Below are positions 31,150 through 39,885 of a stretch of 47,274 bases of DNA, in pieces (the stretch's first letter is position 1; every line of letters begins with the position of its first letter). A model generated the notes under the pieces. That model searched no databases, was not told the DNA's origin, and saw only the letters and a list, made by a program, of their open reading frames with translations. The stretch spans positions 1 to 47,274 of the forward strand of contig JAGSHJ010000001.1 in assembly GCA_023954595.1 (NCBI GenBank), in the 5' to 3' direction. Source of the DNA: Bacteriovoracaceae bacterium (GTDB taxonomy: Bacteria; Bdellovibrionota; Bacteriovoracia; Bacteriovoracales; Bacteriovoracaceae). Made by a program: the position numbers and the translations under genes.

Positions 31150-32484
31150 CTAATCCTCAGTCTTCTCTATCTCACCGACATGATAAACTTTACCTCGACC
31201 AGACTTCTTAGAAACATACATCATAGAGTCAGCAAAATTTATAATTTCCGTAGCAGTTGTGGCATCTGTTGGATACTCAGCAATTCCTATTGAAAGACTT
31301 AACTGGTAATTTTTCGCTTCTCCGATATTAAAGCTTTTCATCTTAACCGCCTCTCTTACTCGTAGCGCGATATTATGAACGGCGCTAATTGGGGCCTCAG
31401 GCATAATGACAACAAATTCATCCCCGCCATACCTATAGATCTTATCGGTAGATCTAAGTACTCTTCTCAACTCTTCAGCAATTTCAAGAAGCATCTGAGA
31501 GCCTACGACATGACCAAAGTTATCGTTAACTTGTTTAAAGTGATCCACATCGATAAACATTACTGAGAATGTTTTTTCGGCCTCTTTATGACTTTCTATT
31601 GCCTTCTCAAGATCCTGGCCAAGTTTTCTTTGATTAAAAAGACCTGTTACATCATCTTTATTTGCTAGATCAATGTAGCCGCTGATTTTTTCAAGATTCT
31701 TTCGATAAATTAATGCGTTTTCTAGGTGTCTAAAGAACAGATCGTTTAAGATAAAATCTTTCTGAGATTTATCTAGCCTGCACACACACCAAGTTTCTTG
31801 CTCCTGCTTTCTATAAACGGGAAAAGCGCACAAGGTTGTTTTCTCACTCAGCTCCACCTCTATAGTTTGACCTATAAAGATCCGTGGTAATTGGAATTCC
31901 TTAATCTTTTTATAGATATCTCGCTCTTTAATTTCAACACCAGCTACTAGATCGAAGTTTCTTTGATCATAACTGAGGATGGAAAGTTCCACGCCTTCGT
32001 CGAAATTATTAAAATAAGAGCTTAATTTTTGAAAAAGGTCTAAATCTGTCTTTACTTTAATTGGAGAAGACAACAACTCCATCAGGTGCCCAAGCGGTAG
32101 ATCAAGTTTTCCGTCTTTGAAGTTTCTCAAATCACTTCTAATTAGGGCCTTTTGTAATTGCTCAGGACAGTACTTTCTATCTAAAACCATTGAAAGTGAG
32201 AACTCAAAAGCTTTAAGTAAAGTAGCAAAGTCTCGCTTTTGAAAGATGACATTTATAGGAAGCGTCCTTCTAGAGCGCTTTATTTGAGCGATATTTTTTT
32301 CAAACTCTTCTACACTGGAGTCATGTAAATAAAATAAAGAATGGGCCTTAAACTCAATGCTATCCAACTCTGAAGCACTATTAATGTTTTGAACTTCAAA
32401 TTCTTCATTTAAGTCCGTAAGACACTGCTCAAACTTACGTTTTTTCCGTTGATCAAAATTCAATAGAAGAATTTTTCTCGTCAT
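31150..32484 (-). CDS. diguanylate cyclase (GGDEF) with an N-terminal receiver-like domain
   Basis: 444 aa. Active site RYGGDEF with an RSTD (RxxD I-site) five residues upstream. N-terminus KILLLNFD...LFYLHD... is receiver-like but partly degenerate. Confidence 0.85.
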   Translation of the reverse strand: MTRKILLLNFDQRKKRKFEQCLTDLNEEFEVQNINSASELDSIEFKAHSLFYLHDSSVEEFEKNIAQIKRSRRTLPINVIFQKRDFATLLKAFEFSLSMVLDRKYCPEQLQKALIRSDLRNFKDGKLDLPLGHLMELLSSPIKVKTDLDLFQKLSSYFNNFDEGVELSILSYDQRNFDLVAGVEIKERDIYKKIKEFQLPRIFIGQTIEVELSEKTTLCAFPVYRKQEQETWCVCRLDKSQKDFILNDLFFRHLENALIYRKNLEKISGYIDLANKDDVTGLFNQRKLGQDLEKAIESHKEAEKTFSVMFIDVDHFKQVNDNFGHVVGSQMLLEIAEELRRVLRSTDKIYRYGGDEFVVIMPEAPISAVHNIALRVREAVKMKSFNIGEAKNYQLSLSIGIAEYPTDATTATEIINFADSMMYVSKKSGRGKVYHVGEIEKTED

Positions 32485-32487
32485 AAT

Positions 32488-34875
32488 TTAAACGTCCAGA
32501 CTCTTCTTTAAATTTTTTATATCTCTTAGAGGAGCTTCATCCTCTTCTAATTCACCGATTGCTCTTCTCAAAGTATTGATAACCCTCTCCATTCTCTCTT
32601 CCATGGCGTACTTGTTATCGACGGTTTTCTTCTCTTTGACTTGGATAGACTCCATATCAAACTCCAGAGTATCTATCTTGCGTTTAAGCTCTAGTATTTT
32701 GAAGTCTCTATTTCTTATCTGAAGCTCAGTATCTGCTTTTAAAAGTTCAAGTTTATTTTCAAGCTCACGCTCTCTATTCTTGATTTTATTGAGATCCACA
32801 GATGTTTTCTTTCTTAGTTTTTCATTCTCTTGTTCAAGACGCTTGTTCTTTTCTTCAAGAATTGATTTTTTCTCATCTGCCAACTCGACTCTATAGCGCA
32901 GCTCATCGAGTTGCTTAACTCTTCTTTTATTAATAAGACTTATTTCAATGCGCTTTTCTTCCAACTCTGCTTGAAGCGTAGAAAAGTCAGATTTGTCATT
33001 ACTAATTTTATCCTCTAGTTGAGCGACCTTATCTAGAAGGGCCTGTCTGTCTTGGCGAAGATGTTTAATTGTTTCTCCAAGTCGGGAAAATTCATTGTCA
33101 TGACTCTCTAGAATCCCTTTCTGCTCATCAATCGTTTTATTGCCACTTAAAGAAAAGTCACTATTCGATGGAGTTTGCTCTGCCAGGTAGTTATCTTCAG
33201 CAGGTTCCATCTGGGCATCATAAGTAAAAACTTGTGTCGCCGAGGAGTCTGAACTTTCCTGAGTCGGGTCGAAGTCCTCTTCCTCTGAGTTTAGTTGGTT
33301 AACAATGTCGATATCAGATGATGGTTCGTTTTCATCAAATGCCATCATCTTTTCTATTTCGGCCAGCTTCTCTAATGCATCATCACTCATTTCATTACTG
33401 GTGCCAGAGGAATTCAACTCTGGTGCATCAGGCAGACTGTCTGCAGACAAAGAGTCTTCACTACCCTGATTAAACAAATCATCGTCTGATAGGGATAGCT
33501 CGTCTTCAGGCATATCAAAGCCTGGTTCTGTATTAACCTTGAATTCATTATGCGTTTGTTCTGGTTCTTGCTCTGTTTCTTGCTCTGGTTCTTGTGCACC
33601 AAACGACAGGTCTTCGAGCTCTTCAATGTCATCATTAAAGTTCAACTCAGCAGCTGCTGCATCTTCAGAGAGATCAACTTCTTGGGAACCATCGCCAAAT
33701 TCAATGGCCTCTTCTTCATCTGAAAGTTCAAGAGATGATAGGTCCACATCACTGGAGATATCCTCACCTAGATCATCCGAAAGACTTAATTCGGCTTCAT
33801 CAGCTTCAATTCCTAAATCAGCATCTTCAGCTGAGATTAATTCATCTGCACCCAAATCGAGATCCATTCCAGCGTCCATGTCTTCGGACAAACTTAAATC
33901 CTGTGATTCATCCATCTCTTGACCTAAATCAAGTGCATCACTTAGGTCATCGTTACCAAGTTCTAGTGAATCATCTGAGTCAGAACTCAGCTCAAGGCCA
34001 TCATCGGAGTCTTCTCCCAACTCTAGCCCATTATCCTCTTCAATAACTAGTTGCTCATCTGAGCCGGCAAGATCAAGGCCTAATTCTTCAGTCCCATCGC
34101 CCAACTCCATCCCAGAATCATCATCAAGGGATAAATCAAGGCCACTTTCATCACTATCGCCAACTTCTAATTCAGAAGCGGATTCTAAATCTAGCTCTTT
34201 ATCGTCTATGGCCATTTCCGGCTCCTCGTCTATTTGTACTTCGGTATCTCCAGACTGCTCACCTTCCATTGCAGATAGGTCCAAGTCAGGATAAGTTCCT
34301 TCTGATACGCCCTCACTTGCATGCAAGGCATCATCTCCATCTTTTTTCTCTAGTTCTTCAATTTCTTTTAAGGCCTCACTCGATTCAGGGACCTCGCCAA
34401 GAGTTTCGCGAAACACTTCATCCAGCATTCCACTTGTTTCCATCGCACTTTCATCGACATCTAGACGTTCTTCGTGCTCAGAAAGAACCTGCTTTTGCTT
34501 ATCCAACAGCCCTACTGATAACTTTTCGCCTAAAAGTGGCTCAAGCACACTGATGAGAACACGCTCATCAACAGGGCACTTTAGATATACGTCCCCTCCA
34601 AGCTTTGACTTCTGGTGTTTTGCAATTTCTTTCGAGGACATTTTTGATGTTATAAAAACAAGATTGAAGTTGATTTTGAGCTTTTTTAAGGCCTTAAGCT
34701 TTTTTTCAAGCTTCTTTCTCTCAAAATCCAAGTCGAAAATGAGTAAATCCCCCTCATCCACTTCCGTGACAAGGTCCTCAACATCTTCAAAGAGGTCGAT
34801 ATCTACATATTTCCCGGCCAAACCAAGAAATTGCTCTAATGAATCCGATTCACTGTCCCAGATTAGGGTTTTCAT
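32488..34875 (-). CDS. receiver-domain / hyper-acidic repeat / C-terminal coiled-coil protein (FrzS/AglZ-like architecture)
   Basis: 795 aa. Residues 1-115 are CheY-like (LLIFDLD, LVFITSK, GGDVYLKCPVD). Residues ~180-575 are D/E/S/L/G-rich. Residues ~596-795 are heptad-rich and K/E/R/L-rich. The stop lies 3 nt before the GGDEF gene start. Confidence 0.7.
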   Translation of the reverse strand: MKTLIWDSESDSLEQFLGLAGKYVDIDLFEDVEDLVTEVDEGDLLIFDLDFERKKLEKKLKALKKLKINFNLVFITSKMSSKEIAKHQKSKLGGDVYLKCPVDERVLISVLEPLLGEKLSVGLLDKQKQVLSEHEERLDVDESAMETSGMLDEVFRETLGEVPESSEALKEIEELEKKDGDDALHASEGVSEGTYPDLDLSAMEGEQSGDTEVQIDEEPEMAIDDKELDLESASELEVGDSDESGLDLSLDDDSGMELGDGTEELGLDLAGSDEQLVIEEDNGLELGEDSDDGLELSSDSDDSLELGNDDLSDALDLGQEMDESQDLSLSEDMDAGMDLDLGADELISAEDADLGIEADEAELSLSDDLGEDISSDVDLSSLELSDEEEAIEFGDGSQEVDLSEDAAAAELNFNDDIEELEDLSFGAQEPEQETEQEPEQTHNEFKVNTEPGFDMPEDELSLSDDDLFNQGSEDSLSADSLPDAPELNSSGTSNEMSDDALEKLAEIEKMMAFDENEPSSDIDIVNQLNSEEEDFDPTQESSDSSATQVFTYDAQMEPAEDNYLAEQTPSNSDFSLSGNKTIDEQKGILESHDNEFSRLGETIKHLRQDRQALLDKVAQLEDKISNDKSDFSTLQAELEEKRIEISLINKRRVKQLDELRYRVELADEKKSILEEKNKRLEQENEKLRKKTSVDLNKIKNRERELENKLELLKADTELQIRNRDFKILELKRKIDTLEFDMESIQVKEKKTVDNKYAMEERMERVINTLRRAIGELEEDEAPLRDIKNLKKSLDV
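33556..33594 (-). repeat. 3.25 copies of a 12-nt in-frame tandem repeat
   Basis: The coding strand reads CAAGAACCAGAG / CAAGAAACAGAG / CAAGAACCAGAA / CAA, encoding QEPEQETEQEPEQ. Confidence 0.8.
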
Positions 34876-35028
34876 ACTTATTCTTCTCCATTCTTCACTT
34901 TTAATGATAACAGAGACATAGATGCTGCAATAGGCGGTAAAAAGATTTCAATTGGTTAGAATAGTTCCTATTGATAAAAGGTCTTTCGGACATTAAAATT
35001 TAACAAAAAACCCCAAGGCGGTACAAAA

Positions 35029-36060
35029 ATGCAATCAATCCTAAAGAGCACACTTCTCTTTATTATATCTTTCAATGTGTATGCTGAAGAGTTCCTTCCA
35101 GCAAACATCTACCAATTGGACTCTCGGTTCGCTCACCACGTAGTTGTGGTTGAGAAGTCGACACATAAGCTCTATTTATTTGAGAACGACAACTCCCGTC
35201 CAAAACTTCTAAAGACTTACCAAATCGCTACGGGAAAAATTACTGGGGATAAAAGAGTTCAAGGTGATGAAAAGACTCCTGAGGGCATTTATAGATTTCA
35301 GAAGTTTCGTCCAGCGTCAGACTTAGTTAGCTCTTACGGTGATTATGGCCTGATCTATGGAGCCGGTGCTTTTACAACAAACTACCCTAACATCATGGAC
35401 ATCAGAGCAGGAAAAACAGGTGGAGGAATTTGGCTTCACTCAACTGATGATGATTCTCGTGTTGGTAAAGGCCTAGACTCTAGAGGTTGTGTCGTTGCAG
35501 TCGATTCTGATCTAAAAGACATTTCGAAATATATTGACCTAAATAACACTCCAGTAGTTATAGTTCAAAACCTTCACTATTTGAAAGAGTCGACTTGGAC
35601 GGCCAATAAAAATCAATTGGCCAATGAAGTTTTAACTTGGGCAAAAGCTTGGAAAGAAAAAGACTTCGACACATACATCAATCAGTACTCTAAAACGGAT
35701 TTCTTTAATTCTAAAAAGGGTAACTACTCTCAGTTTAAATATTACAAGAAAGCTATTTTTTCTAGAACTGAAAAGCCTGAGATCGCTTTCAGAAATGTTT
35801 CTATTCTGGCCTACAACGATTACGCAGTTGTAACACTAGAGCAGGACTACAAATCTAAATTGATTCAAGATATTGGTAAAAAGATCCTATATTTCAAAAA
35901 AGATGCAAACTACAACTGGAAAATAGTTGCTGAACAATGGAAAAAGCTAGAGCCTAGCCAACAATTGTCTTTTGTACCTTCTCCGCGATTCTTTCCTACT
36001 ACTGAAGAACAAGTTGTTCAGTCTCAAGAAAGAAAAACTAGCAATATAAAAGAAAACTAA
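35029..36060 (+). CDS. L,D-transpeptidase-fold (YkuD) enzyme with a C-terminal NTF2/SnoaL-like domain (Csd6/Pgp2/Bd1075-like architecture)
   Basis: 343 aa with a signal peptide. The YkuD catalytic motif is IWLHSTDD...GLDSRGCVVA (His137/Cys154). The C-terminal LTWAKAWKEKDFDTYINQYS...VVTLEQDY...NWKIVAEQW fits the NTF2-like pattern. Confidence 0.75.
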   Translation: MQSILKSTLLFIISFNVYAEEFLPANIYQLDSRFAHHVVVVEKSTHKLYLFENDNSRPKLLKTYQIATGKITGDKRVQGDEKTPEGIYRFQKFRPASDLVSSYGDYGLIYGAGAFTTNYPNIMDIRAGKTGGGIWLHSTDDDSRVGKGLDSRGCVVAVDSDLKDISKYIDLNNTPVVIVQNLHYLKESTWTANKNQLANEVLTWAKAWKEKDFDTYINQYSKTDFFNSKKGNYSQFKYYKKAIFSRTEKPEIAFRNVSILAYNDYAVVTLEQDYKSKLIQDIGKKILYFKKDANYNWKIVAEQWKKLEPSQQLSFVPSPRFFPTTEEQVVQSQERKTSNIKEN

Positions 36061-36061
36061 A

Positions 36062-36784
36062 ATGATTCAAAAGCCTACTAAAGAGCTAACACTCATTGTT
36101 TATAATACGCCTAAGCCTCCTAGATATTTAAAAATAAATAAGAGGCTATTAAAGCTATTAATTTTTGCTATTCCATTTCTTCTTATTGTTTCTCTTTTAT
36201 TCTCACTTACAACTACTGTGTATATGAAGAAGAAGCTTGAAAACGCAAGAAGCCAAGAGCCAGCAATTATTACTTCTCTAAGATCCGAAAAAGAGCAGTT
36301 GTCATCCGAAGTCGAATCACTGAAGAAGGTAAATGCCAATCTTACTCAAAAGATTTCAGCAGGCTCAACTAGTGGCCCTGCAAGTGCATTGGCACTCTTC
36401 TCTACCCCAGTTGGGTATGAAGACTTCACAGAGAAAGAAATGGCAAAGCTTGAGAATATGAGTGCTAACTTCCGCCAAGACAAGGTGGAGTTTCGTTTTG
36501 ATTTGCTGAACAACTTAGAGGGTGACGAGAAACTATCAGGCTATATCAGCATTGTTCAGTTTGCTGACAACCATATGAGTTTTCACCCCCAGCATACTCT
36601 TACGGTTGAAAACAATAGATTAGACTTCTCTAAAGGTGAGAGTTTTGTAGTCTCTAGATTTAGACCTGTTATTGCAGAATTTGAGAAACCAAACAGCTTG
36701 GCCGTTTGGTATAAGGTTTTTATTTTTAGTCGCTCAGGCGACTTGATCAGCTATAAAGTGGCTGGTCCTTACCAGGTCAATTAA
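36062..36784 (+). CDS. bitopic membrane protein with a coiled coil, unknown function
   Basis: 240 aa. One TM segment (LLIFAIPFLLIVSLLFSLTTTVY), then a coiled coil (SLRSEKEQLSSEVESLKKVNANLTQK), then a beta-rich domain. The start lies 1 nt after the upstream stop. Confidence 0.55.
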   Translation: MIQKPTKELTLIVYNTPKPPRYLKINKRLLKLLIFAIPFLLIVSLLFSLTTTVYMKKKLENARSQEPAIITSLRSEKEQLSSEVESLKKVNANLTQKISAGSTSGPASALALFSTPVGYEDFTEKEMAKLENMSANFRQDKVEFRFDLLNNLEGDEKLSGYISIVQFADNHMSFHPQHTLTVENNRLDFSKGESFVVSRFRPVIAEFEKPNSLAVWYKVFIFSRSGDLISYKVAGPYQVN

Positions 36785-36785
36785 A

Positions 36786-37130
36786 ATGAAAGAAAGCGAA
36801 TTCAAATCTCTAAATTTCACAATGCTAGGAAAAGGCAGCGAGTATGAGGGTGATCTTAGACTCTCAGGCGACACAGTTGTAAACTGCAAGATCTTGGGCA
36901 CCTTAACGATTCTGGATGGCTCAAAGCTTACTATAGAGCGTGAAGCAATGATTGAAGGCTCAATTTACTGCAAAGATGTAGAAATTTTTGGAGAAGTTAG
37001 CGGGTCCATTTCAGCAGCAGGATCAATGGTAGTTAGATCTTCAGGAAAGGTTTCTGGCAATATCGAAGCAAAGAACCTCAGCGTCTATCCAGGCGCCCTA
37101 CTTAATATTGAAGGGCGCGCTCAAGAATAG
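36786..37130 (+). CDS. bactofilin (polymer-forming cytoskeletal protein)
   Basis: 114 aa. Repetitive beta-helix pattern GDLRLSGDTVVNCKILGTLTI...IEGSIYCKDVEIFGEVSGSISAAGSMVVRSSGKVSGNIEAKNLSVYPGA. The start lies 1 nt after the upstream stop. Confidence 0.85.
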   Translation: MKESEFKSLNFTMLGKGSEYEGDLRLSGDTVVNCKILGTLTILDGSKLTIEREAMIEGSIYCKDVEIFGEVSGSISAAGSMVVRSSGKVSGNIEAKNLSVYPGALLNIEGRAQE

Positions 37131-37134
37131 TTAC

Positions 37135-38502
37135 TTATAGATATTTTTTATAATTTAGAACTTTTACCTTATAGCCGGCCTTTTCAAGGTCGGTTTTTAG
37201 TTTCTTAGAACCTAGTACAAAGATAAGTTGCTCACTAGGATCAAATAGCTTTCCAACTTCCTTCTTCACCTGATCCTTAGTTAGACTATCCACAGCTCCA
37301 GGAAATTCATAAATCTCTTCATACTCTCTTCCAACATGGTCAAAGTAGATTAGATTGCTTAAAAAGGCACTAGTTGACTCTAATCCAAACAAGTAACTAC
37401 CTTTGGCATATCTTTTAGCCATCTGGAAGTTATCTTCTTTAATTTTATTAGTACTGTTTCTTAAAACTTCTTTGATTGCATCCAATGTTTGGACGATTGT
37501 CTCATTTTTAGTAAAAGTAGAGATGCCCTTGCGGCCATACTTACTTTGCTCACTAGCATAAGATCCAATTGAATAAGTAAGCCCTCTAGCAACTCTAATT
37601 TCTTGCATCAAGCGAGAAGTAAATCCACCACCTAGAAACTGTGAAGTGAAATCGCGAACTTCATGATTCTTTGAAGACTCCTCAGCAGTCATAAAGTTTC
37701 CAATTCTGATTTGTGCCTGATTTGCTTTTGGAACAACTGCCAAGTAAACAGTCTTGTCATCGCCTCTTCTACTCTCTTTAGTTGCCTTAGGAGTTTTAAC
37801 GACAGCTTCACGCTTGCCCCACTTACAATCATTTTCAAATACGGCCTTAAGAGCTTTCATCTCTTTTGGACCTTTAATATAGATTCTCTTTTTGATGTCA
37901 TCATTTAGGAATTCAATCTTCTTTTTAAGATCACCCGAAGAGATTCTCCCAATACTTTTTAATGTGCCCCCTACCGGGTTTTCGTATCCAGTCCCCTTTA
38001 GGCTTTCCTTTCTGAAGATTCTATTCGCAAGCCCACTATGATTTGATGGAAGATTGCGAAGACCTGTCTTCATTCTTTTAACACTCTTTTTAAGCTCTGC
38101 TCTTGGGTAGGTCGCGTTTCTGAACATGTGACAAACCATTTTCATAGTAGGAACAGCGTCTTTAACAAGTCCACTCACATTGTAAGATGAAAATTCATGG
38201 GTAACGCTTGCTTGATAGCTTGCTCCATAGAACTCTAACGAGTCCAGAATTTCTTTTTGCTTATATCTCAAAGTCCCGGTACTAAGCAGATCAAAAGCAA
38301 GTTGTGTTTCACCATACTTCCCTGGAGCATCTGAGTATGCTCCTGCATGGAAATAAACAGATACATCGTAAACAGGATAGGAATCATCTTCTAACCAAAT
38401 GACTTCAACACCATTCCAAGTTTCCTTCCTTAGATTGTCTTCTAGATAATTGGCATTTGCGCCAAAACTTATAATTGCAAATAACGTGATTAACAGCTTC
38501 AT
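37135..38502 (-). CDS. M16-family peptidase, non-catalytic partner subunit
   Basis: 455 aa with a signal peptide. M16 fold blocks are present, but the HxxEH position reads ETQLAFDLL. Confidence 0.7.
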   Translation of the reverse strand: MKLLITLFAIISFGANANYLEDNLRKETWNGVEVIWLEDDSYPVYDVSVYFHAGAYSDAPGKYGETQLAFDLLSTGTLRYKQKEILDSLEFYGASYQASVTHEFSSYNVSGLVKDAVPTMKMVCHMFRNATYPRAELKKSVKRMKTGLRNLPSNHSGLANRIFRKESLKGTGYENPVGGTLKSIGRISSGDLKKKIEFLNDDIKKRIYIKGPKEMKALKAVFENDCKWGKREAVVKTPKATKESRRGDDKTVYLAVVPKANQAQIRIGNFMTAEESSKNHEVRDFTSQFLGGGFTSRLMQEIRVARGLTYSIGSYASEQSKYGRKGISTFTKNETIVQTLDAIKEVLRNSTNKIKEDNFQMAKRYAKGSYLFGLESTSAFLSNLIYFDHVGREYEEIYEFPGAVDSLTKDQVKKEVGKLFDPSEQLIFVLGSKKLKTDLEKAGYKVKVLNYKKYL

Positions 38503-38514
38503 ATTTTCCTCTAA

Positions 38515-39885
38515 TTATTTTTTATGTTTATTCCAGATTGATAAAAAGATCGCGTTATCTTTTACGATATAGTCCTTACACGCCTTTTTAACTTCTTCTA
38601 AATTGATAGACTGGTAAGTGGCCAATTCCTTTTTATAAAAATCATAGTCACCATAATATGCTTGTCTATCTCCAATAAACTTTGCAATCCCTTGATTAGT
38701 GTCTAATCCACTTAAATAAGAAACAAGGTATTGATTCTTAACCTTTTGAAGTTGTCTCTCATTAAGTGATTGTGCACACCCTCTTTGAAGATTTTTGAAA
38801 AGATCATTTCTGACAGTGTTAATTGAAACTCCATTGAGAAGTTGTCCACCTATAAAGAACACGCCACTCTCTAAAAGAGTGTAGTTTGCAGCATAAACAT
38901 TTGATAGCTTAGGCTTTCTGGCCAATACATACTTTTCACTTAGGTAAGAACTCTCACCATCGCCCAGCATAGAAGATAAGATATCCAGAGTATAAGCGAT
39001 TCTTGGACCGACTTTCACGCCTTTAAATCCCAACATAAATACAGGATCTTTTGTGTCTCCATGGAGTCTGATGTGACGTCCGCCATACTTCCCTTTAAAA
39101 TCAAATCCACCATTTTGCTTAAAGATTGATTCTTTGCGCTCTTTTAGTTTTTCGTTTTTAGGGATATCACCAAATTTTGATTCTACTTCTTTTATAACCT
39201 CATCGCTGTCAACATCACCAACGATTACAATGAAAGCGTTATTAGGAGCATAAAAAGTTTTGAAGTACTCAAACACTTGGTCTCTAGTTACATTCTTAAT
39301 GTCTTCAATTTTTCCGATAACAGGAATTCCATAAGGAGTTCCTTCAAACATGCTAGTCATCATCTCCAAATAGATCTTGCCTCTATCAGAGTTTTCATAA
39401 CGCATCTTTCTCTCTTCCAAGACTACGTTTTTCTCAGAAGCAAACGACTTAGGGTTTAATGCCAGATTTTGCATTCTATCTGCTTCAACATCAATAATCT
39501 TTTTGATGTGTTCAGATGGAAGACTCTCATAATAAACAGTCATATCACTAGTGGTGTAAGCGTTATTCTTACCACCACTTCCTTCAACCATTTTATCAAA
39601 CTCCCCTTCAGGATATTTTTTTGCACCTTTGAACATCATGTGTTCAAGAAAATGGGAGGATCCAGTAATCCCTGGCGTTTCAAACTTTCCGCCAACATCA
39701 AAATAGGTGTAATAAGATACCAATGGAAGCTTGTGATTTTCCACAACTAGAACTTTCAATCCATTGTCTAAAAGCTTTTCTTTAACTTCAAAGTGAATAA
39801 GGTCGCTCTCACTTCTACCTTGTTTTACATCCTTATTGGCACACCCTAAAAAACTGAGCATTGCCGCAAGCCAGATTAACTTCAT
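38515..39885 (-). CDS. M16-family zinc peptidase (catalytic subunit), lipoprotein
   Basis: 456 aa. Lipobox FLG-C and the inverted zinc motif HFLEHMMFKG (HxxEH). Confidence 0.85.
   Translation of the reverse strand: MKLIWLAAMLSFLGCANKDVKQGRSESDLIHFEVKEKLLDNGLKVLVVENHKLPLVSYYTYFDVGGKFETPGITGSSHFLEHMMFKGAKKYPEGEFDKMVEGSGGKNNAYTTSDMTVYYESLPSEHIKKIIDVEADRMQNLALNPKSFASEKNVVLEERKMRYENSDRGKIYLEMMTSMFEGTPYGIPVIGKIEDIKNVTRDQVFEYFKTFYAPNNAFIVIVGDVDSDEVIKEVESKFGDIPKNEKLKERKESIFKQNGGFDFKGKYGGRHIRLHGDTKDPVFMLGFKGVKVGPRIAYTLDILSSMLGDGESSYLSEKYVLARKPKLSNVYAANYTLLESGVFFIGGQLLNGVSINTVRNDLFKNLQRGCAQSLNERQLQKVKNQYLVSYLSGLDTNQGIAKFIGDRQAYYGDYDFYKKELATYQSINLEEVKKACKDYIVKDNAIFLSIWNKHKK

Follow-up and report, generated by a model that had tools for sequence, protein, structure and literature searches.

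In Bdellovibrio, the LD-carboxypeptidase Bd1075 converts tetrapeptides to tripeptides in the peptidoglycan, and thereby bends the cells; residues H141 and C156 are catalytic, while arrival of the enzyme at the convex face depends on Y274 and on W303, the latter specific to Bd1075 (Banks et al. 2022, PMC8938487). Among bactofilin partners, LmdC is a bitopic protein: its cytoplasmic β-hairpin is bound to BacA, and the periplasmic part consists of a coiled coil and an M23 domain. Its gene neighbours that of a bactofilin in 226 species, and cell curvature is modulated by it in Rhodospirillum (Pöhl et al. 2024, PMC10945521). In Helicobacter pylori, the cytoplasmic N-terminus of Csd5 binds the bactofilin domain of CcmA and brings the bactofilin to the envelope; the periplasmic SH3 domain of Csd5, which is non-enzymatic, binds peptidoglycan directly, and the protein also recruits MurF (Sichel et al. 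2022, PMC9507126). The locus described here is a three-gene operon, in which the gene for a Bd1075-type enzyme (gene 1) is followed by those for a membrane protein of a new family (gene 2) and for a bactofilin (gene 3). It lies in a stretch of 47,274 nt from a Bacteriovoracaceae bacterium (contig JAGSHJ010000001.1, positions 1 to 47,274), indicated in the following as the window. The source organism is a marine predatory bacterium of the Bacteriovoracia.

The gene annotation and the operon are solid; coordinates are reported in Table 1. Both the adaptor protein family represented by gene 2 and the linkage of a bactofilin to an LD-carboxypeptidase are undescribed, the components themselves being of known classes. 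The reading with the best support, although given a little less than an even chance, is that the three genes are transcribed together and constitute a trans-envelope module for cell shape, where the bactofilin would be coupled by gene 2 to the wall and to the enzyme. In an earlier reading of the sequence alone (the original prediction), no described system was known with a Csd6-type enzyme and a bactofilin linked in one operon. Full-text literature searches found no report linking bactofilin to LD-carboxypeptidase or to Bacteriovoracia, and the statement stands for the linkage itself; the prediction had overlooked the closest precedents, bactofilin-LmdC and CcmA-Csd5, whose bitopic partners are laid out like gene 2.

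In the window, the stop codon of each gene is separated by 1 nt from the ATG of the next one, at both junctions, so that the three closely packed same-strand genes of the original prediction are found again in the coordinates of the open reading frames (ORFs). The arrangement is widely conserved. When genomes were scanned with a profile of gene 1, 80 loci were retrieved from all over Bacteriovoracales, Halobacteriovorax, Bacteriovorax stolpii and Peredibacter among them: of the 75 loci extending far enough downstream, 74 show the order gene 1-gene 2-bactofilin intact. Between gene 2 and gene 3 there is a 4-nt overlap in 33 loci, and the distance is within 10 nt in nearly all; at the gene 1/gene 2 junction gaps are mostly of 1–3 nt, or the genes overlap. 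These distances were taken from raw ORF coordinates; many homologs feature 1–3 extra N-terminal residues. Another 17 intact triads came from metagenomes scanned with the profile of gene 2. Recurrence of the same order and tight spacing in 74 evaluable genomes and in these metagenome loci indicates that the arrangement is not due to chance. Families whose gene 2 proteins are only about 32% identical still keep the order, while the 3' flank is variable: an M16 peptidase gene lies downstream of the triad in 43 of 69 loci, and the flank is different in the other 26. The sole exception among the 75 loci comes from a higher-GC Oligoflexia metagenome-assembled genome (MAG; LF-bin-469, locus L083, 4851..7268), where the gene 1 homolog is followed by an amino-acid permease gene.

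Conservation of the triad, set as a check on the original prediction, thus holds across Bacteriovoracales, but not across Bdellovibrionota: bd1075 and its Bdellovibrionia orthologs are monocistronic, and neither gene 2 nor a bactofilin was found within 6 kb of them by a sensitive search. In published work, the one B. bacteriovorus bactofilin gene examined, bd3904, is located in the parA3-parB operon. As a separate observation, a complete triad of the Bacteriovoracia type, with gene 1 at 54% identity, is present in a MAG deposited as 'Flavobacteriaceae bacterium' (CAXPDR010000034.1, locus L029); this is probably a mis-binned contig.

Gene 1 contains the two domains proposed for it, an L,D-transpeptidase-fold domain and an NTF2-like one, close to where they had been placed: Pfam reports YkuD (E-value 5e-18) and Cds6_C (E-value 1.9e-20). 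The resulting architecture is that of Csd6, Pgp2 and Bd1075, as anticipated, and by both sequence and fold the nearest of the three is Bd1075. Among sequences of the PDB, Bd1075 (7O21) is matched over residues 20–309, that is over both domains, with an E-value of 1.7e-45, followed by Pgp2 (9e-33) and Csd6 (4.5e-24). The AlphaFold2 (AF2) model, with a predicted local distance difference test score (pLDDT) of 85 and a predicted template modelling score (pTM) of 0.83, has 7O21 as its best Foldseek match (E-value 6e-27; template modelling score, TM, 0.89 normalised by target); Pgp2 (6XJ6) and Csd6 (4XZZ) come next, with E-values of about 1e-18 to 1e-19. Folding of the C-terminal domain into an NTF2-like cone had been chosen beforehand as a test able to refute the assignment: the model folds in this way, and Foldseek matches its C-terminal half to many NTF2-like cones. 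Csd6 from H. pylori and Pgp2 from C. jejuni likewise combine a YkuD with an NTF2-like domain and act in cell shape, but are more distant than Bd1075 and do not feature the Trp-bearing C-terminal extension (PMC8938487).

Gene 1 and Bd1075 have in common the two-domain architecture, the catalytic His and Cys (H137 and C154 align with H141 and C156 of Bd1075), the pocket residue Tyr274 and an extended C-terminus with an equivalent of Trp303. In 77 gene 1 sequences, H137, S138, C154 and Y274 are invariant, while at position 304 there are 61 with W and 16 with F. The genomic neighbourhood of the window, with two M16 peptidases, FliL and a rhomboid protein, matches that of bd1075, which indicates that the two loci are orthologous. 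Because of the agreement in sequence and fold, the conserved catalytic and targeting residues and the common neighbourhood, gene 1 is classified, at the sequence level, as an ortholog of Bd1075 and a predicted LD-carboxypeptidase. The N-terminus features a hydrophobic, signal-like segment ending VYA/EE, and a hydrophobic h-region is present in 74 of 77 homologs; on this sequence-level evidence the protein is predicted to be secreted to the periplasm. Three differences from Bd1075 are observed: Ser replaces Ala after the catalytic His; gene 1 is operon-linked to gene 2 and a bactofilin, while Bd1075 is monocistronic; and gene 1 carries a distinctive C-terminal tail.

This tail contains the motif AFxPxxRFF, found in 75 of 77 operon-linked gene 1 proteins and in 113 of 120 database homologs, but in none of 120 Bd1075-clade proteins. 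In the AF2 model pLDDT is 73, then 56, along residues 311–330, and the tail around the motif is probably flexible. We infer that the tail is a candidate docking peptide for the head of gene 2; as an alternative reading, it might be recognized by a tail-specific protease. Many Bdellovibrio orthologs of Bd1075 have a conserved C-terminal motif of their own, approximately KEVTAAIARE, located past the NTF2 Trp, where the chain could not be traced in the crystal (Banks et al., PMC8938487).

Gene 2 had been described in the original prediction as a protein with a transmembrane segment, a coiled coil and a beta-rich domain, matching no recognised family. The AF2 model (pLDDT 85) agrees with this description. 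A β-hairpin, with strands at residues 8–13 and 21–26, stands right before the transmembrane helix; a single helix, spanning residues 27–100, includes the sole hydrophobic segment and continues into the coiled coil; a Gly/Ser linker then leads to an eight-strand, all-beta sandwich (residues 128–238 in the model). No family was found for the protein in Pfam (E-values up to 0.1) or in NCBIfam, and its profile retrieved only coiled-coil noise from the PDB. When the model was analyzed by Foldseek, only generic immunoglobulin (Ig)-like or fibronectin type III-like sandwiches were found, with TM scores not above 0.44, and the top 50 matches include no enzyme and no M23 domain. There are 82 close homologs, none of which contains a Pfam domain, and a full profile search identified 753 clusters at 50% identity; in the best 150 of these, full-length members are about 240 aa long. 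Gene 2 therefore founds an undescribed family.

The distribution of charges favours, according to the positive-inside rule, an N-in/C-out orientation in 76 of 77 homologs: gene 2 is predicted, from sequence and model, to be a single-pass membrane protein with cytoplasmic N-terminus and periplasmic C-terminus. Conservation is highest in the N-terminal hairpin, with 48% mean identity versus 23–32% elsewhere. The coiled coil is 45 residues long in 67 of 77 homologs, and between 44 and 47 in all; the maintenance of this length, in spite of an identity of only 29%, suggests a spacer of fixed length. The topology is that expected of a trans-membrane adaptor, and gene 2 may play this role, possibly also by contacting gene 1.

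Among described systems, genes 2 and 3 most resemble the bactofilin-LmdC module of Hyphomonas and Rhodospirillum. Like LmdC, gene 2 lies beside a bactofilin gene and is predicted to consist of a cytoplasmic β-hairpin, a transmembrane helix and a periplasmic coiled coil. LmdC, however, ends in a catalytic M23 endopeptidase, while a non-enzymatic, Ig-like sandwich stands at this end of gene 2, the peptidoglycan enzyme being a separate, secreted LD-carboxypeptidase. As an M23 (LytM) peptidase domain was found at the gene 2 C-terminus neither in Pfam, at E-values up to 0.1, nor in the top 50 Foldseek matches, gene 2 is not a member of the LmdC family, though it plausibly acts in a similar way. A second functional analogue is Csd5, also a bitopic adaptor with a non-enzymatic periplasmic domain that contacts the wall. 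Csd5 shows no homology to gene 2 and is not operon-linked to an LD-carboxypeptidase; a periplasmic SH3 domain was not found in gene 2 by family search, the predicted fold being the eight-strand sandwich. The hypotheses that gene 2 is a degenerate M23/LmdC protein, or is related to MreC, SH3/Csd5 or PilN/O-like proteins, were all discarded on the basis of the Pfam, NCBIfam, PDB and Foldseek results reported above.

Gene 3 is, by sequence, a minimal cytoplasmic bactofilin, related to the Thermus and Caulobacter proteins. The bactofilin assignment of the original prediction is borne out by a Pfam match to PF04519, with an E-value of 4e-20 over 94 of the 98 profile positions, and by PDB matches to the Thermus bactofilin (6RIA, E-value 8.5e-5) and to Caulobacter BacA (2N3D). 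Membrane binding of canonical bactofilins is mediated by an MFSKKKK-like peptide, where F2, K4 and K7 are critical, and a membrane client protein can stand in for this targeting sequence (PMC12448750). The N-terminal tail of gene 3 is instead short and acidic (MKESEFKS). When tails of the family were classified by the canonical rule (MFSKKKK-like, hydrophobic at position 2, Lys at 4 and 7; PMC12448750), only 1 of 77 was canonical-like; 66 contain at least two acidic residues and 75 have a zero or negative net charge. The canonical tail is common in bactofilins, but does not define membership. A comparison with the BacA-PbpC system of Caulobacter shows the same difference: BacA, whose client is a class A penicillin-binding protein, has the canonical tail MFSKQAKS, while that of gene 3 is acidic (PMC12448750).

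These features may be combined into a mechanism. The bactofilin polymer would lie under the inner membrane, captured by the cytoplasmic hairpin of gene 2, just as other bactofilins are by LmdC, Csd5 and PbpC; such a capture is suggested by the lack of a canonical membrane-targeting peptide in gene 3. The 45-residue coiled coil would hold the Ig-like head at the height of the peptidoglycan, where the head would position or regulate the LD-carboxypeptidase, possibly through the AFxPxxRFF tail. Trimming would then be confined to one face of the cell, producing the comma shape typical of the clade. Halobacteriovorax cells are comma-shaped (PMC5760749). Restriction of the tail motif to the operon-bearing clade is counted in favour of a link between gene 1 and the other two genes. 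In its most specific form, where gene 2 represents a new class of trans-envelope 'ruler' adaptors, joining the bactofilin polymer to the LD-carboxypeptidase via this clade-specific tail, the proposal is tentative, and rather unlikely to be right.

A number of observations weigh against such a coupling. At the distant loci L113 and L114, the bactofilin gene has a 4-nt overlap with a gene resembling gene 2, and no gene 1 is adjacent; since the heads encoded there retain the GESFxVSRFR motif, the head must have some function for which an operon-linked enzyme is not needed. The downstream gene is M16 in L113, while MBL and AlaDH genes follow in L114. Conversely, gene 1 of L083 carries the tail motif (GFNPSQRFF) with neither gene 2 nor gene 3 adjacent. 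Bd1075 curves Bdellovibrio with no gene 2 or bactofilin gene within 6 kb, which indicates that the enzyme has no intrinsic need for such a module. Csd6 does not interact with CcmA, Csd5 or Csd7 (PMC9507126). The hairpin of gene 2 shares an R-Y-[IL]-x-I pattern with the 1–38 peptide of LmdC by eye, but in a profile test 308 of 5000 shuffles score as well, and the sequence similarity of the two hairpins is not significant. Finally, a divergent gene for an acidic coiled-coil protein is found upstream of the triad in 60 of 62 evaluable loci: with the upstream flank as conserved as the triad, much of the synteny within the clade could reflect inherited gene order.

Adjacency of gene 2 and bactofilin is kept at 22–35% gene 2 identity, and the pair occurs without an adjacent gene 1 in distant relatives. 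The conserved core is thus the gene 2/bactofilin pair; gene 1 is a lineage-specific addition or retention, and only in Bacteriovoracia is the pair linked to the LD-carboxypeptidase. The main rival of the trans-envelope coupling model is that gene 2 and bactofilin form a self-contained pair, whose head binds peptidoglycan or some other client, such as a synthase, gene 1 being merely co-expressed, for example during growth inside prey, with no contact between them. The enzyme would find its site by its own NTF2 domain, as in Bdellovibrio, where Bd1075 acts alone. The L113 and L114 loci, the position of Csd6 outside CcmA complexes and the direct binding of peptidoglycan by Csd5 all fit this possibility. 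It explains less well why the triad is intact in 74 of 75 genomes in spite of rearrangements at the 3' flank, why the gene 1/gene 2 junction is so tight, and why a conserved tail motif was acquired by gene 1 only in the operon-bearing clade. Co-expression without contact is considered possible, to about the same limited extent as the ruler.

According to a different hypothesis, gene 2 would be a membrane-tethered inhibitor or activator of the LD-carboxypeptidase, rather than its recruiter: clustering by bactofilin would switch activity locally, and asymmetry would arise by regulation. The non-enzymatic Ig-like head, which has the proteinase inhibitor 3ISY among its structural neighbours, may be seen as an indication in this sense, as may the tight coupling of the operon and the finding that CcmA regulates Csd1 indirectly, via Csd7 (PMC9507126). 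The structural match, on the other hand, is weak and generic (TM score not above 0.44), and regulation of this kind is improbable.

The same low probability is assigned to the view that the true unit comprises gene 2, the bactofilin and the divergent coiled-coil and GGDEF genes, as a cytoplasmic scaffold, for polarity or controlled by cyclic di-GMP, for example at a flagellated or invasive pole, with gene 1 as an unrelated neighbour. The frequent association of the divergent gene with the module points in this direction, as does the presence of divergent coiled-coil and GGDEF genes upstream of the gene 2/bactofilin pair also in L113 and L114, where gene 1 is lacking. Yet, over half of gene 2 consists of the conserved periplasmic stalk and head, pointing to an envelope or peptidoglycan function; gene 1 separates gene 2 from the divergent promoter region, with 1–3 nt coupling; and the 795-aa coiled-coil protein belongs to no recognisable family. 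Inherited gene order, with no functional meaning, is the least credible explanation: the entire neighbourhood is indeed syntenic within the clade, but overlapping or 1–4 nt junctions are typical of translational coupling, and the order survives across families down to the identity reported above, while the downstream flank changes.

How an enzyme that trims the wall is directed to a single lateral face of the cell is a question of which Bd1075-type enzymes are the clearest case, and one that the operon makes testable: an enzyme of this type is joined here to a cytoskeletal polymer associated with curvature and to a partner spanning the membrane, and the clade has comma-shaped members that can be cultivated (Halobacteriovorax marinus, Bacteriovorax stolpii, Peredibacter). 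A sizeable unannotated family, the 753 clusters described above, would join the list of bactofilin partners, and the association of bactofilins with hydrolases, so far concerning M23 endopeptidases, would extend to LD-carboxypeptidases. If gene 2 acts as a ruler, a mechanism by which a peptidoglycan-trimming enzyme is placed on one lateral face would be described for the first time, as would an LD-carboxypeptidase under bactofilin control; modules of the LmdC type would also prove divisible, with the adaptor non-enzymatic and the enzyme soluble. If the genes do not interact, the gene 2/bactofilin pair and Bd1075 would be separable modules, assorted differently in three Bdellovibrionota lineages.

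The features of the operon and of its flanks are collected in Table 1. The sigma-70-like site upstream of gene 1 is only consistent with a role as the operon promoter: 2 promoter-like sites were found in the scan, versus 5.8 expected from shuffles, that is fewer, with no enrichment. No plus-strand promoter-like site was detected by this pattern match between the three genes. For terminator-like sites, enrichment over shuffles is not clear.

Table 1. Position of the operon, its predicted domains and the flanking features in the window
Feature	Position (nt)	Strand	Remarks
GGDEF protein gene	31150-32484	-	Pfam GGDEF, E-value 3e-43
795-aa acidic/coiled-coil protein gene	32488-34875	-	divergent from the operon
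Candidate sigma-70-like promoter	34971..34999	+	TTGATA-17-TAAAAT; about 30 nt 5' of gene 1; matches 10 of 12 consensus positions
Gene 1	35029..36060	+	343 aa
Gene 1, predicted signal peptide			residues 1-19
Gene 1, YkuD domain	about 35137-35562		residues 37-178 (H137, C154)
Gene 1, NTF2-like domain	about 35617-35937 (Pfam match)		residues 197-306 (Y274, W304); Pfam Cds6_C match at residues 197-303
Gene 1, tail motif SFVPSPRFF	35968..35994	+	residues 314-322; family consensus A-F-x-P-x-x-R-[FY]-F
Gene 2	36062..36784	+	240 aa
Gene 2, predicted cytoplasmic beta-hairpin	36062-36142	+	residues 1-27
Gene 2, predicted transmembrane segment	36149-36223	+	residues ~30-54
Gene 2, predicted periplasmic coiled coil	36227-36361	+	residues 56-100; followed by linker
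Gene 2, predicted Ig-like beta-sandwich	36437-36781	+	residues 126-240; carries the GESFxVSRFRP motif
Gene 3	36786..37130	+	114 aa
M16 (insulinase-type) peptidase gene pair	37135..39885	-	convergent with the operon; M16 stop 4 nt from gene 3 stop
Terminator-like hairpin and T-run	37173..37195	+	43 nt past the gene 3 stop, within the 3' end of the convergent M16 gene; pattern match only

The 795-aa protein features a long, acidic, low-complexity middle region and a coiled coil at the C-terminus; no family was found for it in Pfam or in the PDB, and its N-terminus gives no more than the impression of a receiver-like domain. A functional connection between this protein and the bactofilin module is possible. 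On the opposite side of the operon, the M16 pair is found to adjoin bd1075 also in Bdellovibrio. Unannotated proteins of 208–241 aa encoded near Bd1075 were considered as hidden homologs of gene 2, and rejected: hmmsearch --max gave no match, and their layout, with a signal peptide and a C-terminal transmembrane segment, is different. Beside the M16 pair near bd1075, Bdellovibrionia encode a conserved, unannotated protein of about 210–240 aa (L084 1694..2320, L086 1478..2188, L088 9..734), which has no Pfam assignment and is not homologous to gene 2; the C-terminal transmembrane segment is present in all three loci, and a signal peptide in L086 and L088.

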